DNA from: an uncultured archaeon
GTDB lineage: Archaea; Iainarchaeota; Iainarchaeia; Iainarchaeales; 1-14-0-10-31-34
Assembly: GCA_964442255.1 (NCBI GenBank)
Contig: CAYTYC010000012.1
Location: 1 to 41,898 of the forward strand
DNA length: 41,898 bases
Direction: 5' to 3'
Part shown: positions 23,116-39,285 of the stretch, piece by piece
Layout: each line of letters starts with the position of its first letter
How positions within the stretch are numbered: position 1 is the stretch's first letter
Program-made: the position numbers and the translations under genes
The notes under the pieces: model-generated
Told to the model about the DNA's origin: nothing
The model's database searches: none
The model's input: only the letters and a program-made list of their open reading frames with translations

Positions 23116-23283
23116 TTTGCCCATTCCGTAGGGCAGGTCCGGTAAGCCACCTCCTTCGCTTTGCTGCGGAGGTAGGTTTGCTCGTTTCGCTCGCATGTGC
23201 CGGTTTCGCCCGGCAGGAACGAGATACGTCAACCCGCCCTTCGCTTAGCTCGGGATGGGTTATAAATATGGTGGCCCGCAAAC
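23116..23283. repeat. GC-rich multi-hairpin cassette downstream of tRNA-Val
   Basis: Shares an exact 27-mer TTGCCCATTCCGTAGGGCAGGTCCGGT (23117-23143) with 38411-38437. Confidence 0.8.
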
Positions 23284-34127: not shown

Positions 34128-34745
34128 CTATAATAATGTTTTGTTTGAGGTTTTTTGGATGGTTAAACTTTCCCGCGGCCCGGGGGTAAGCGGTCCAAGC
34201 AGTTCCCTTGGAATAATGCGTTTCTTTGACGTGGACACCGGCGGACCAAAAATGTCGCCGGAATTCATTGTCGCATTAAGCGTTGTATTCATAATAATTG
34301 TTGTGATAGTTAAAAGCCTGCTGCCGTCCTGATTATTTGGGCCTTCTTTGCCCCGTCCTTTTCGTGGGCTTTCCCTTAACCCCGGCTTTTCCTTGGTTTC
34401 AGCCTTTTTTCCTTTCAGGATTGAGTCGGCTTCCTTTATTGTGGAGTAAGGGTCAAGCCGCCCTACTGTTGCCCTTAATCCTGCAAGCGCAAGGGTTCTC
34501 TCCCTGAAGCCGTACTTGGTTTTTTCCAGCATCGCCTTTGTGAATAGGTCAATGTACTCCTGGAATTTTCCGGCTTCAATAAGCTCTTTTGCGGTCGGCA
34601 TTCCAAGCCGCCGCATCCCGGGGTCAAAAACCCTCAGCTTTCCCCAAAGTTGTGCGTTCACCAATTCCCTTTCACGTATTTCTTCATCAGGGGTTTCAAC
34701 AGCGGCCTTCAAGGCAACCTCAATCGGGTCAGCCACTCTATTCAC
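34128..34745 (-). CDS. Hypothetical protein; its C-terminal part overlaps sec61beta antisense
   Basis: GTGA coupling to the ileS stop; about the first 135 aa look protein-like. Confidence 0.55.
   Translation of the reverse strand: MNRVADPIEVALKAAVETPDEEIRERELVNAQLWGKLRVFDPGMRRLGMPTAKELIEAGKFQEYIDLFTKAMLEKTKYGFRERTLALAGLRATVGRLDPYSTIKEADSILKGKKAETKEKPGLRESPRKGRGKEGPNNQDGSRLLTITTIIMNTTLNATMNSGDIFGPPVSTSKKRIIPRELLGPLTPGPRESLTIQKTSNKTLL
34159..34332 (+). CDS. secG: Preprotein translocase subunit Sec61beta (archaeal SecG)
   Basis: GPSSSLGIMRFFD...GPKMSPEFIV + TM. Confidence 0.9.
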   Translation: MVKLSRGPGVSGPSSSLGIMRFFDVDTGGPKMSPEFIVALSVVFIIIVVIVKSLLPS

Positions 34746-37594
34746 TTCCCCAAGCCAATAAAAAATTCCCTGAATAAGTTTTTTTCCATTTTTCCTTTTC
34801 CTTCCCTTAATTTTGTGTTGGTCTGCTTTTCAATTTCTTTCCCAAATTTTTTCACAAACCCTTTGTCAGAGGAACCGAGCCTCAACTCAACAGTATCATT
34901 CGGGTTAAATTTGAGTTCTTTTCTCTTGGATTGAATTTTCCTGACCAATTCCGCAAGCTCCCATTTTTCCTTTAACTCTTCACTTTCCTCTACATTCAAA
35001 TGCAGTCTGATTTTTTCCCCGAAGTCCTCCGAAAAGAATTTTCCCTTCGGCTTTCCCCTGGAAAAAGAAATTTTTTCCACGTTAACCATCTGCGCAAGAA
35101 TTCCCGTTGTTTCCTTCAACGGCTTTCCCTTTGCTTCAATAACCAGTTCCTTCAAAACCCACCGCAAGCGCTTTTTCTGTTTTTCCCTCATTGACAAAAC
35201 AGCCTGCGCAATCTCCTTCACCAGCCGGAATTCTTTCTCCAGCCTTTTGTCAATCAATTTTTTGTCAGCTTTCGGGAGCGAATAAAAGTGGATTGATTCC
35301 TTCATTCCCTTTTGCTTCATGTCCCGGTAAAAGTATTCCGTTAAATGCGGGACAACCGGCGCAAGCAGTTTCATCAAACCAAAGGTCACGTAGTTTGCGG
35401 TTTTGCTTACCGGCTTTTCTTTCACCCTGTTCCTGATGAGCTTAATGTAAGTCCTGCTGAAATCCTCCAACAAAAAATCATGCACCAATTGTGTTGCCTT
35501 AGAGTAGGCATAGGAATTGTATGCATCCAAAACCTCTTTGCTTAAGGAATTAAACCTTGAAACAATCCACTTGTCTTCAGGCTTCAGCCCTGAGGCCGAG
35601 ATTTTTTTTTCGGGTTCCATTTCCAGATACAGGTGAATGAAGTTAAACGAATTCCAAAGGACATTAAAGAAGCGGTTGATTTCCCTGAATGCGTCCCAGG
35701 AAAAGGCAATATCCTCTCCCCGGGAAACGGAGGCAAAATAGTATCGCAAATAATCCCGGTTGTGCTTTGCGATTACATCCTTGGGCTGCACAATATTCCC
35801 CTTGCTTTTCGACATCTTTGTTTTCTCGACATCCAAAACCATTCCATGAACCGCAATCGCCTTGAAAGGCGCCTTGTTGAAGGAAATCGTTGAGGTAATC
35901 AACTGCGAATTCCACCATCCCCTAAACTGGTCGCTTCCCTCCAAGTTAAAGTCCGCTGGCCAAAACTTTTCAAACAACTTTTTATCCAAAGGATAACCCA
36001 ATGCCCCCCAGCTGCTGACACCCGAATCAAACCAGACATCCATTACCTCGGGAACCCTTTTCATTTCGCCTTTGCATTTCTTGCACGGAAACTTAACTTC
36101 ATCAATGTGCGGCTTATGCAAATCCAGTTCCTTGGGAAGCTTTGCGTGTTTCCCTAATTCTTTCAATGAGCCAATCACAACCTTTTCTTTGCATTCCCCG
36201 CAAACCCAAATCGGAAGGGGCGTGCCCCAGTACCTTGCCCTTGAAATCGGCCAGTCCCCTATTCCATGAATCCAGTTTTTCATTCTTTCCTTCATCCACC
36301 CCGGAACCCACTCAACTTTTTCATTCAATTCAAGCATTTTTTTCTGGATTCCTGACACGCGGAAAAACCATTGCGGGACGGCAATCATCAAAAGCGGAGT
36401 CTTGCATCTCCAGCACAAAGGATAATCATGCGTGAAAGGATGCCCGTACACCAGCAAACCTTTTCCCTTCAAGTCCTGCACAATCTCTTCATCCACTTCC
36501 CTTGCCCTTTTTCCCGCGTACTTTCCCGCCTCTTTTGTTAATTCCCCGTTCAATTGCACCGGGCTGATTGCAGGCAAACCCGCCTCTTTTCCCGCTTCAT
36601 AGTCCTCGCGCCCATGCCCCGGCGCCGTATGCACTAACCCTGTGCCTTCCTCCAAATTCACGTACCTGCTGTGCAAAATCACGCGGTAAGCGTTTTTCAG
36701 TTCAGGCAAATCCAAAAAACCTTCCAACGGGGCCTCATACTCCCAGCCATCCATTTCTTTTCCCCTGAATTCCTTTTTGGCTGTGTAGCCCGCTTCAACC
36801 GCATCCATTAAACCCTGCACCAAATCCTTTGCGATAACCCATTTTTCCCCGTTGCTTAACTCAATTTCACTGTACAAAAACTTCGGGTGAACCATTACCC
36901 CTGTGTTGCCGGGCAAAGTCCAGGGGGTGGTGGTCCAGACAATAAGGAAAGTGTTTTCCTTTCCCTTTACCTTGAATTTGACGTAAACTGCCCTGTCCGT
37001 TTGTTTGGCGTACTCTATTTCATTGTAGCTCACAGAGGTTGCGCACCTTGGGCAGACATGCACTGAATACTTGTCCAAATAAAGAAGCCCCTTTTCCTCC
37101 GCCTTCTTGAACGCAAACCAAATCGCTTCAATGTACTCGTTCCGTAAGGTAATGTACGGATTTTCCCAGTCCATCCACACCCCCAAATCATTGAATTCTT
37201 CGTTCATTTCGTCAATGTACCGGGTTGCGTAAGACCTGCATTTTTCAATGAACTTCCCGACACCGTAATCTTCAATGTCTTTTTTCCTTTTCACTCCAAT
37301 CTCTTTTTCTATCTGCACTTCAATTGGAGTTCCGTGCGTGTCATAACCCGGGCGGTCAAAAACGTGAAGGCTTTGCATCCTCTTTGAGCGCAAGGCAATG
37401 TCCTTCAAAATCTTGTTCAAGCCCGTGCCCATGTGAATGTGGCCTGTCGCGTAAGGCGGGCCGTCCATAAAATAAAAGCCTTTCCTGTTTTTTGCGCTCT
37501 TTGCCCTAACCTTTTCCGGAATCTTGTTTTTTTCCCAGAATTTTTTGATTTCCTCTTCCTTCTGCAGGGAATACTGTTCAAGGAGTTTTTTCAT
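34742..37594 (-). CDS. ileS: Isoleucine--tRNA ligase
   Basis: DGPPYATGHIHMG, WTTTPWTLPGN, GTGLVHTAPGHG, DW.ISR.RYWGTP, KMSKS. Confidence 0.97.
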   Translation of the reverse strand: MKKLLEQYSLQKEEEIKKFWEKNKIPEKVRAKSAKNRKGFYFMDGPPYATGHIHMGTGLNKILKDIALRSKRMQSLHVFDRPGYDTHGTPIEVQIEKEIGVKRKKDIEDYGVGKFIEKCRSYATRYIDEMNEEFNDLGVWMDWENPYITLRNEYIEAIWFAFKKAEEKGLLYLDKYSVHVCPRCATSVSYNEIEYAKQTDRAVYVKFKVKGKENTFLIVWTTTPWTLPGNTGVMVHPKFLYSEIELSNGEKWVIAKDLVQGLMDAVEAGYTAKKEFRGKEMDGWEYEAPLEGFLDLPELKNAYRVILHSRYVNLEEGTGLVHTAPGHGREDYEAGKEAGLPAISPVQLNGELTKEAGKYAGKRAREVDEEIVQDLKGKGLLVYGHPFTHDYPLCWRCKTPLLMIAVPQWFFRVSGIQKKMLELNEKVEWVPGWMKERMKNWIHGIGDWPISRARYWGTPLPIWVCGECKEKVVIGSLKELGKHAKLPKELDLHKPHIDEVKFPCKKCKGEMKRVPEVMDVWFDSGVSSWGALGYPLDKKLFEKFWPADFNLEGSDQFRGWWNSQLITSTISFNKAPFKAIAVHGMVLDVEKTKMSKSKGNIVQPKDVIAKHNRDYLRYYFASVSRGEDIAFSWDAFREINRFFNVLWNSFNFIHLYLEMEPEKKISASGLKPEDKWIVSRFNSLSKEVLDAYNSYAYSKATQLVHDFLLEDFSRTYIKLIRNRVKEKPVSKTANYVTFGLMKLLAPVVPHLTEYFYRDMKQKGMKESIHFYSLPKADKKLIDKRLEKEFRLVKEIAQAVLSMREKQKKRLRWVLKELVIEAKGKPLKETTGILAQMVNVEKISFSRGKPKGKFFSEDFGEKIRLHLNVEESEELKEKWELAELVRKIQSKRKELKFNPNDTVELRLGSSDKGFVKKFGKEIEKQTNTKLREGKGKMEKNLFREFFIGLGK

Positions 37595-38241
37595 TTTTTC
37601 ACCAGTTCTTCAATTTTTTCCACGGAAACCTCTTTTAAGCTTTTTACAGCCAAATCCGCGCGAGAAAAATCGTGCTTGGAGGTGAACTCCGTTACAAGCC
37701 CAATGCACTTCATTCCCGCATTCTTTGCCGAATCAATTCCCGGGGAAGAATCTTCCACGGCAACCGCATTCCGGGCTTCAACCCCTAAAGCCTTTAAGCT
37801 CTTCAGATAAATTTCCGGGTTCGGTTTGATCTCTGCAACGTCGTCCCCGGAAAAAACCGAATCAAAAATTCCCTGAAATTTTCCGTGCTCCAAAACAGCG
37901 TCAACATTTTTTTTGTGCGAGTTTGTCGCCAGCCCAAGTTTCCAGCCCTTTTCCTTCGCTTCCTTTAACAGCTCCCTTGCGCCTTCGCTTACTTCCACTT
38001 CCTTCAAGTATTCGTAATGCAGTTCCCGCTTTTTTTTGCTTAACTCAACCACGTCCCCCTCAATTTTAAAGTCAGCCAAAGTTTTCTGGATTGCCTTAAA
38101 GGTTTTGCTTCCAACCAAATTCTGGTAATAATCCTGTGTAATCTCCGCCCCAAGCGGGGAAAACAATTCCTTCCATTCCCTGAACCCAAGCGCCTCTGTG
38201 TTAATCAGCACCCCGTCCATGTCAAAAACCAATGCATTCAA
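37591..38241 (-). CDS. HAD-superfamily phosphatase (beta-PGM-like)
   Basis: FDMDGVL, LATNS, KPNPEIY, VEDS..GI. Confidence 0.92.
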   Translation of the reverse strand: MNALVFDMDGVLINTEALGFREWKELFSPLGAEITQDYYQNLVGSKTFKAIQKTLADFKIEGDVVELSKKKRELHYEYLKEVEVSEGARELLKEAKEKGWKLGLATNSHKKNVDAVLEHGKFQGIFDSVFSGDDVAEIKPNPEIYLKSLKALGVEARNAVAVEDSSPGIDSAKNAGMKCIGLVTEFTSKHDFSRADLAVKSLKEVSVEKIEELVKK

Positions 38242-38260
38242 TTAATTCACGCTCCAAAAA

Positions 38261-38335
38261 TGGGGCCAGGAGGATTTGAACCCCCGACACATGGCGTATA
38301 AGACCATTGCTCTAACCAGGCTGAGCTATAGCCCC
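38261..38335 (-). tRNA. trnI: tRNA-Ile(UAU)
   Basis: GGGGCTA/TGGCCCC acceptor, ATGGT-CTTATAC-GCCAT anticodon arm, GGGGG-TTCAAAT-CCTCC, A73. Confidence 0.9.
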
Positions 38336-38612
38336 TTGCCGGCTGCTGCCGGCAGTGCAGGGTGCCATCTGCGATGGCACTTGCTCGCCCCAATGGGCTC
38401 GCACTGCCCCTTGCCCATTCCGTAGGGCAGGTCCGGTGTGCCGGCTGTTCCCGGCAGTGGAATCCCGCCTGCTCGCGGGAGCGGAGTGCGCCATGCTTTG
38501 CATGGCAGTTGTTCGGCTTTCGCCTCGCACTTGCCGCCTTCTTGCGGCAGCAGAGATGTCCTGTTTCCTCCGCTTTTGCTCCGGAGGCAGATCTGCTCGC
38601 TTCGCTTGCAGT
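38336..38612. repeat. GC-rich multi-hairpin cassette upstream of tRNA-Ile
   Basis: About nine hairpins; the 27-mer shared with the tRNA-Val cassette; 10-bp direct repeat GCCCCTTGCC at 38331 and 38406. Confidence 0.8.
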
Positions 38613-38772
38613 TGCCCTGCAGTTAAACAGTGTATATTTACCTTTATATAATTCACTTAAAAGAGAATCAGAAAATCCTTTGTGGGCGTATTTGTCGATC
38701 CCTTCTCATGTTTAACACTCCAAGAAATGGGGTTAAAAGGGTTTTTAAAGGATAAGGGGAAGCTGAATTAAT

Positions 38773-39285
38773 ATGGCCAAAAAAAGGAATCCAAAACCGC
38801 TTTTATTCTCCGGCTCCAGAGCCAGTGAAAGGATGCAGCAGGTCAGAGACACCGCCAACGCCGCAAAAAAAGCCATTAAGGAATTGGATCCGAATGTTGA
38901 AGCGCCAATATTTGCTGCTTTGAATTTAAGGGCGGAGAAAGTGAAAAGCGTTGACCCAAAACACAGGAATCAAAGAAAAGTTTTGGCTGACATTCTTCAC
39001 GACGTATATAACCAGCATTCTTATCTTTATTCCAGGAAACCAGAAGGATTTGGCGCCCTGATGGATTTGTATGGAAAAGATTTTCGCGAGGTAGCCCCCA
39101 ATGTTTCAAGTGCGCTTTTAAAGCACTGGGCGCGCGTTTTAACAGACATAAAAATGAGAAAATTGGGGAGGGAAAAAGATTTAACTGGCCGGCATGGAGG
39201 AGAATGGATTTACACCTGGAACAACATCAACTCCGAATTGGGAGCCCTCCTTGATGAAGCCTTGTCGCACCTTAAAGGGAATTAA
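38773..39285 (+). CDS. Hypothetical protein
   Basis: 170 aa, TTTTAAA box about 25 bp upstream of ATG. Confidence 0.6.
   Translation: MAKKRNPKPLLFSGSRASERMQQVRDTANAAKKAIKELDPNVEAPIFAALNLRAEKVKSVDPKHRNQRKVLADILHDVYNQHSYLYSRKPEGFGALMDLYGKDFREVAPNVSSALLKHWARVLTDIKMRKLGREKDLTGRHGGEWIYTWNNINSELGALLDEALSHLKGN

Follow-up and report, generated by a model that had tools for sequence, protein, structure and literature searches.

A probably mobile two-hairpin repeat between promoter and tRNA-Ile(UAU) in an Iainarchaeota genome

What lies between the tRNA-Ile(UAU) gene of this archaeon and its promoter? In the 41,898-nt stretch of DNA analysed here (the window), the ~285 nt directly 5' of the tRNA gene (38336-38625) have ~65% GC; over 38300-38599 the GC content is 0.645-0.655, compared with 0.37-0.48 on either side (~44% nearby). 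An earlier note on this DNA had read the stretch as an unusually long, highly structured pre-tRNA leader, possibly acting on the genes downstream. Is the stretch transcribed as a leader? Is it one designed structure? And where did it come from? The locus holds the following features.

38686-38712, minus strand: landmark ATGAGAAGGGAT..ACAAATAC, conserved and anchoring the homology of the promoter region; a TTTAAAAA box of its own lies at 38742-38749 (invariant alignment columns; single-copy in the genome)
38633-38653, minus strand: predicted promoter, TATA-like AATTATATAAA (38643-38653) with TAAATATA (38633-38640), aligning with TTATTTAAATA of six same-family genomes
38261-38335, minus strand: tRNA-Ile, anticodon UAU, CCA not encoded (ARAGORN; Rfam RF00005, 65.4 bits)
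38256-38260, minus strand: T5 run just 3' of the tRNA, a putative partial terminator judging by its sequence
37591-38241, minus strand: HAD-family hydrolase gene, TTG start at 38241 (Pfam HAD_2, 7e-38)
34742-37594, minus strand: isoleucyl-tRNA synthetase gene, ileS (Pfam tRNA-synt_1, 3e-122)

Folding and transcription of the upstream stretch

For the minus strand of 38336-38660 the folding energy is -149.1 kcal/mol, whereas dinucleotide shuffles average -117.5 +/- 5.6 (z -5.67), and none of 100 shuffles folds as well; the plus strand of the stretch gives a z of -4.71. The minimum-free-energy (MFE) structure of the minus strand has ~11 terminal hairpins, which makes the earlier count of about nine a fair one, and its loops are A-rich and GNRA-like (GCAA, GAAA, GCGAAGC). 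The larger architecture proposed in the earlier note fares less well. The arms of its three-way junction do exist (GGCAGTGC/GCACTGCC, 8 nt, at 38351-38358 and 38401-38408 in a repeat search), but the junction is absent from the MFE structure; its TGCAGGG/CCCTGCA pairing is present in the minus-strand MFE, but without comparative support. Complementary 7-mers at long range are in excess (14 observed, 2.9 in shuffles), most of them because palindromic modules, described below, recur along the stretch. Comparative support was found for none of the long-range pairs in the array, covariation being limited to local hairpins.

Does the stretch belong to a known class of RNA? A search of 38150-38800 on both strands against Rfam 15, relaxed from the gathering cut-off to E<=10, returned the tRNA itself, two spurious matches overlapping it and nothing else; no T-box was among the matches, as the earlier note had said. 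At E<=0.1, 20 related module-bearing loci gave only tRNA, rRNA and RNase P. An identity as RNase P RNA (RF00373) or SRP RNA was rejected, as neither matches the stretch, the former also because the RNase P RNA of this genome sits on another contig. Protein coding was likewise discarded: Pfam matches none of the three ORFs (98-117 aa) that cover the stretch, and the frames differ between the module copies. Compared by blastn with 40 relatives, the stretch has no match in the eight same-family genomes and only matches of 25-42 nt in two others; sequence search alone misses this repeat family. Could the stretch then be an independent structured small-RNA gene or precursor which shares the tRNA promoter, is released by RNase P and has a function of its own? 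Its GNRA-like loops are typical of stable RNAs and it would carry the primary 5' end, but the missing full-length homologue, a content that is modular and variable, and the lack of a match to any known family make this improbable.

Where is the tRNA promoter? The claim that no A/T-rich box lies directly upstream of the tRNA was borne out by 8-mer composition: in the proximal 285 nt, 8-mers reach at most five A/T. The first all-A/T 8-mers upstream are those of the two boxes at 38633-38640 and 38643-38653, the very ones that the earlier note had named, and they are the sole ones within 320 nt of the tRNA. In the same-family genomes, all eight of which carry tRNA-Ile(UAU), the order is a landmark (ATGAGAAGGGAT..A.AAATAC), a T-rich run and the TATA box TTATTTAAATA; after this box the tRNA follows either at 34-36 nt (three genomes) or behind a hairpin-rich leader of ~60-115 nt. 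The landmark and TATA box of the window match these columns one for one. This homology is the main argument that inserted DNA has pushed the promoter away from the tRNA, so that transcription must cross the array; with a promoter ~300 nt upstream that is homologous to the TATA box of its relatives, the tRNA is most likely transcribed through the structured stretch. Transcription would probably begin at ~38620-38624, a start predicted from the usual archaeal TATA-to-start spacing, and give a leader of ~285 nt. Two further findings agree with a leader processed by RNase P: the promoter lies upstream with none inside the array, and the genome does encode an archaeal RNase P RNA (C17:9654-9924, 97.9 bits), the gene that the earlier note had proposed to look for. 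Such an arrangement is rare in this genome (G000), where a GC-rich, strongly folding 5' flank is found at 3 of 31 tRNAs only (Ile-UAU, Ala-UGC and Lys-CUU). For most of the other tRNAs an A/T-rich box is found no more than ~45 nt from the 5' end, which implies short leaders.

What does the leader mean for the genes downstream? The HAD gene starts 20 nt after the tRNA, with a Shine-Dalgarno (SD)-like GGAGCGTGA between the T5 run and the TTG start. HAD-ileS has no space for a promoter of its own and would rely on read-through, so the T5 run would terminate only partly. The tRNA-Ile promoter thus probably feeds HAD-ileS, and to this extent the suggested effect on these genes stands, but nothing indicates Ile-specific regulation. 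In 17 Iainarchaeal loci (L027-L057), tRNA-Ile(UAU) precedes ileS on the same strand, at a gap of 17-942 nt (17-90 nt in several relatives), and this tight linkage suggests a conserved co-transcript of tRNA and synthetase. The closest IleRS sequences come from Candidatus Iainarchaeum/Diapherotrites MAGs, at no more than 65% identity in the best-aligned segment. Put together as a working model, RNA polymerase would start ~25 nt past the TATA box (38643-38653) and read the array as a leader of ~285 nt; RNase P would cleave at 38335/38336, freeing the tRNA and leaving the leader as a by-product; partial read-through of the T5 run would probably yield the HAD-ileS messenger.

The surroundings offer some observations of their own. 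The neighbours of the array are the HAD gene and an ORF without an assigned function; the ORF of 170 aa at 38773-39285 (plus strand) is divergent, has a basic N-terminus and has no Pfam match. The landmark at 38686-38712 belongs to a micro-unit (a TATA-like box, ~30 nt, ATGAGAAGGGAT..ACAAATAC and a T-run) seen in all but one same-family locus. Read as a micro-ORF it would encode MRRDxQI..., with rare AGA/AGG codons and an ATA codon read by tRNA-Ile(UAU); the unit may specify a leader peptide or a small RNA, or may serve as a binding site for a protein. Just upstream of this unit, 38712-38744 (CCCCATTTCTTGGAGTGTTAA) is ~75% similar over ~33 nt to 38246-38277, which comprises the tRNA 3' end, the T-run and SD-like GGAGCGTGAA. 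The likeness may be due to chance or to an old duplication; if real, the duplication would bracket the unit of promoter, array and tRNA.

A two-hairpin module and its four copies

If the relatives have shorter leaders, what do these look like? Six tRNA-Ile leaders from other Iainarchaeota genera have a common order: a hairpin (P-A), a 9-nt spacer and a second hairpin (P-B) that adjoins tRNA nucleotide 1. P-A has three parts: a 6-bp stem on the outside, an internal loop in which CGAG faces CGAAG, and a small hairpin at the inner end. In the alignment of the six leaders 94.6% of the cells are paired and 11 of 16 pairs show double changes, values that none of 500 shuffles reaches (slid controls are 31.9-47.4% paired). 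The module as a whole is built of a small GNRA-like cap hairpin, P-A, a GCAC-containing spacer of 8-10 nt, P-B, and then 0-3 nt. The asymmetric CGAG/CGAAG loop, a strand-specific tandem G-A arrangement, and the spacer ACGC..ACC are kept across genera. A reading of the P-A internal loop as a K-turn was rejected by hand, as the strand order of bulge and G-A pairs is unlike that of the standard K-turn.

A covariance model built from these six leaders (R1) was used to look for further copies. Seeded on Ile leaders and holding seven tRNA bases, R1 is biased toward tRNA-adjacent copies; protein-gene contexts emerge regardless. In the array, it delimits the following.

38524-38625, minus strand: module M1 with cap (CTGCAG..CTGCA, GCGAAGCGAGC, CCTCCG/CGGAGG, GCCGC/GCGGC); R1 match 38598-38524, 14.3 bits
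38463-38523, minus strand: module M2 (GGCGAAAGCC cap, GCCATGC/GCATGGC, CCCGC/GCGGG); R1 match 38513-38463, 9.0 bits
38404-38462, minus strand: module M3 (GCCGG/CCGGC and GCCC/GGGC hairpins, ending in GGCAAGGGGC); R1 match 15.8 bits
38336-38403, minus strand: module M4 (cap hairpin, P-A GTGCCATC/GATGGCAC, spacer CCTGCACT, P-B GCCGGC/GCCGGC); R1 match 38385-38329, 38 bits, E 5.6e-7

R1 thus covers the leader with four contiguous copies on the same strand, which are four of its seven matches in the window; the other three are all weak, and two of them lie in the trailer of tRNA-Val. The three weaker matches within the array are individually not significant and become credible because they are contiguous, on the same strand and in the same register. 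Tandem Repeats Finder reports nothing for the stretch, the copies being too diverged for it, and the covariance model was required. These matches and the alignments behind the model show 38336-38625 to be a head-to-tail array made up of four diverged copies of a non-coding two-hairpin module, each ~55-100 nt long. M1 would make up the first transcribed bases, and in the alignment its GCGAAGC cap falls where the leaders of two relatives (L019 and L026) begin. At the other end, the stable P-B hairpin of M4 is only 2 nt from the tRNA 5' end, the AA after it adjoining tRNA nucleotide 1. Both M2 and M4 have close kin elsewhere in the genome by blastn: M4 is 83% identical over 164 nt to C47:118-277, and M2 (query bases 105-195) is 89-90% identical over ~90 nt to C2:17298-17388, C5:55734-55823 and C24:5008-5079.

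The junction of M4 and the tRNA (38331-38340) recurs as an exact 10-nt direct repeat at 38406-38415, so that the decamer GGCAAGGGGC flanks M4. It contains the first five bases of the tRNA (GGGGC), which are in this way repeated once, between M3 and M4. Are the modules stacked scars of tyrosine-integrase elements that used the tRNA gene as their attachment site? The exact abutment of arrays on tRNA ends and the repeated GGGGC would suit such accretion, but at the Ile array the duplicated part of the tRNA does not exceed 5 nt, and a repeat of only 5 nt is unlike an integrase scar. The array is also on the 5' side of the tRNA, between promoter and gene, no integrase gene adjoins it (ORF list, Pfam), and elsewhere the module enters SD/ATG and stop-codon sites, where a non-tRNA target is duplicated, and an RNase P RNA gene. 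An origin as integrase scars is therefore very improbable.

Copies, insertions and turnover

How widespread is the module? Within G000 (1.28 Mb in 51 contigs) the stretch has 42 blastn matches, and following these matches transitively gives 27 regions with a total of 3.2 kb, most of which adjoin tRNA genes. Modules in C9 and C47 are clearly duplicated in tandem. The usual placement is 1-3 nt past the tRNA 3' end and inverted relative to the Ile copy, as at Arg-UCG, Pro-GGG, Pro-UGG, Val-UAC, Val-CAC, Trp, Lys-CUU and Gly-CCC; with most tRNA-adjacent copies inverted in this way, the Ile arrangement is the rarer one here. One of these sites lies in the window.

23116-23260, minus strand: partial module copies directly 3' of tRNA-Val(CAC), inverted relative to that tRNA, sharing an exact 27-mer with the Ile array (partial R1 matches at 23198-23223 and 23118-23141)

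Approximately 12 of the 15 arrays of G000 that can be classified run the same way as the neighbouring protein gene or tRNA, and three are antisense to both neighbours. Several of the 27 regions are at contig ends; as several repeat arrays terminate contigs, these tRNA loci break the assembly.

Other repeats were noticed at the tRNA genes of G000. A second module, GAGATACGTCA-hairpin-TTATAAATAT, closes several tRNA trailers (~23222-23282 in the window, C24:7302-7375 and C1:29850-29917) and also occurs inside long tRNA introns (76-181 nt) predicted by ARAGORN on C15, C17, C28, C34 and C4; several of these intron-bearing tRNAs are confirmed by Rfam. It carries a promoter-like TATA box in the tRNA-sense direction. 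A third repeat, AATCAGAACC..GGTTCCGATACCTCCCTTAA, is borne by introns, often in tandem, and lies within predicted long tRNA introns at C1:84094-84336, C3:26449-26780, C4:5340-5595 and C22:19981-20191. Many tRNA genes of this genome have long introns or repeat-laden flanks, and the tRNA count is 20 without an intron search and 31 via Rfam above the cut-off. Modules in the introns of two ARAGORN predictions, a tRNA-Gly (C13, '221-nt intron') and a tRNA-Asp (C38, '147-nt intron'), were left uncounted, the Rfam score being poor or none.

Across the class, R1 has matches at E<=0.01 in 44 of 121 genomes, this one included, with up to 33 copies per genome, and no match in the other 77. Taking the best match per genome, sense copies adjoin the 5' ends of tRNA-Ile, Ala, Pro, Leu, Trp, Tyr or Ser (and of tRNA-Glu among the further copies of genome G119), antisense copies adjoin tRNA 3' ends, and in some genomes the module lies between protein genes. 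It is also found in a 16S-23S spacer, before tRNA-Ala. Of 20 further copies in G119, 17 adjoin SD/ATG sites or stop codons, not intron-less tRNAs. P-B lies 0-3 nt from mature tRNA ends or from SD/ATG. In genome G120, the RNase P RNA (L112, C15:1219-1592) holds an insert of ~120 nt with one module in it, directly before the conserved ACAGAAGG segment, and still scores 93.9 bits against the archaeal model.

How did the copies get there? Direct repeats (score >=12; 12, 15, 17, 20, 24, 35 and 45 nt) flank 7 of the 20 copies in G119 compared with 6 of 380 controls with mismatched flanks. At one G119 locus, a 20-nt target with SD and ATG occurs three times, around two modules, while between the same genes of the congeneric G074 it occurs once and without a module, that is, as an empty site. 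Judged against this site, the sequence of the G119 locus records an insertion with target duplication. Around the arrays of G000 the best repeats are at chance level, except for the GGCAAGGGGC decamer at M4. A side observation in G119 (L141, C40, ~2300-2380) is that, after one insertion, the left SD-ATG duplicate opens a frame of 29 codons through the module; this frame ends in a TGA that shares bases with the genuine start codon (ATGA), which would permit translational coupling.

Is the copy at the Ile site a fixture of that site? The Ile-leader module of G119 is 73-83% identical to other G119 copies and 62-69% identical to the Ile-leader modules of other genomes, the congeneric one included; by sequence comparison, module copies at the Ile site turn over. 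This bears on the possibility of a dedicated cis-regulatory leader, be it an attenuator, a riboswitch or a tRNA sensor of the T-box kind, which would tune tRNA-Ile(UAU)/ileS through its three-way junction and long-range pairing. The strong fold, the linkage of tRNA-Ile(UAU) and ileS in 17 loci and the conserved micro-ORF-like unit with its ATA codon just upstream could be cited for it. However, the Ile-leader module is closer to the other copies of its own genome than to the Ile-leader modules of others, numerous other tRNAs and protein genes are bordered by these modules too, and the Ile site of the same-family genomes has anything from 0 to ~115 nt of leader. With no match to the T-box or another Rfam family and no comparative support for the long-range pairs, we consider a regulatory leader of this kind extremely improbable.

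Taken together, the module is most likely a mobile repeat of the Iainarchaeota (DPANN) that enters gene boundaries with target duplication and has accumulated, as the sequence comparisons suggest, between the promoter and tRNA-Ile(UAU). What moves it? Y1_Tnp was found in G000, G116 and G031; in the two tested genomes richest in modules, G119 (33 copies) and G120 (25 copies), it was not. The genomes are 84-94% complete. Reverse transcriptase (RVT_1), expected for a retroposed, SINE-like element, had no match in five module-rich, incomplete genomes. Within the 21 copies of G119, in an alignment fitted to the model, 94.1% of the cells are paired and 13 of 16 pairs show double changes. Tentatively, the module may be a previously undescribed archaeal mobile element that would be recognised by its conserved RNA-type fold, G-A loop included. 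Such an element would spread with target duplications of 12-45 nt at gene boundaries, in genomes without a recognisable transposase or reverse transcriptase, and it could sit in pre-tRNA leaders and in RNase P RNA because it lands where transcripts are trimmed or tolerant. Hosts may have co-opted it as RNA punctuation.

Or do the modules persist because the host benefits from them as RNA? As stable hairpin caps, or as punctuation bound by protein, they could shield the RNAs excised from compact polycistronic transcripts or keep them apart, and the Ile array would then stabilise or pace the processing of the tRNA-Ile/HAD-ileS transcript, which is compatible with mobility. The covariation of stems among the 21 copies of one genome, with which the array might exceed junk, speaks for a service, as do the G-A loop and spacer conserved across genera, the prevailing co-orientation of the arrays with their neighbours and the close spacing of P-B to tRNA ends or SD/ATG. 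The distribution does not: it is patchy, with 77 of the 121 genomes lacking a match and three same-family genomes lacking a module at the Ile site, the copy number at one site ranges from 0 to 4, and three arrays of G000 run antisense to both neighbours. Moreover, a conserved structure is equally expected if mobility needs folding. We think retention for host service unlikely.

Relation to known elements and implications

What remains of the long leader? Transcription through the stretch is probable given the promoter homology, and here the earlier reading was probably right; it was wrong on design, since the stretch comprises four copies of a mobile module instead of one structure. The interpretation of the locus shifts from a possible control RNA of tRNA and ileS to a genomic parasite or passenger. 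A leader of ~285 nt made of four repeats, far exceeding those implied for most other tRNA genes here, lends itself to testing how archaeal RNase P deals with long, highly structured leaders. More broadly, the module family is widespread in the Iainarchaeota, whose ~1-Mb genomes are usually considered streamlined, and it is tolerated in tRNA leaders, rRNA spacers and one RNase P RNA. Once found, its mechanism of mobility and its use to the host would define a new type of small archaeal mobile element, and the same knowledge would account for the assembly breaks at tRNA genes in these lineages and for the genes that tRNA finders miss.

Which known systems does it resemble? In order of promoter, leader and tRNA, and in the presence of an RNase P RNA gene, the tRNA-Ile locus is like that of an ordinary archaeal pre-tRNA, but its leader is ~285 nt long, 65% GC and made of repeats. 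Like a T-box leader (RF00230), the array is a long structured RNA upstream of an aminoacyl-tRNA synthetase gene; T-box leaders, however, are bacterial and sense uncharged tRNA with a Stem I, a specifier and the T-box sequence, and the array has no match to them. Full-text literature searches yielded no description of the module or of hairpin arrays at archaeal tRNA flanks.

The behaviour of the module is closer to that of small bacterial repeats. The REP/BIME sequences (REPINs) of Gammaproteobacteria are also short GC-rich imperfect palindromes in many copies, maintained as hairpins, and both form arrays in transcribed intergenic spaces and at gene ends. REPs, however, are single palindromes of 20-40 nt moved by RAYT (Y1) transposases without target duplication, whereas the archaeal module has two to three distinct hairpins, an asymmetric G-A loop and target duplications of 12-45 nt, and occurs in genomes (84-94% complete) where no Y1 transposase was found. 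MITEs share with it a small size, non-autonomy, multiple copies, a mostly intergenic location and polymorphic presence or absence between related genomes, and the module is indeed small, non-coding, multi-copy and polymorphic in insertion, as the empty site in G074 indicates. By definition, a bacterial or archaeal MITE is bounded by terminal inverted repeats no shorter than 10-15 bp, and its target duplication has a fixed length of 2-10 bp (PMC11602168). In the module, a repeat search found no terminal inverted repeat bracketing a copy; each is a set of separate local hairpins. It thus differs from MITEs in having internal hairpins instead of terminal inverted repeats, and in target duplications that are long and variable. 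A third group are the Rickettsia palindromic elements (RPE), bacterial repeats of 100-150 bp best known for in-frame insertion into proteins; these, like the module, are small palindromic selfish repeats tolerated in functional genes, including RNA genes. By analogy, the small palindromic repeats of bacteria (REP/BIME, MITEs and RPE) would be nearest to the module in behaviour.
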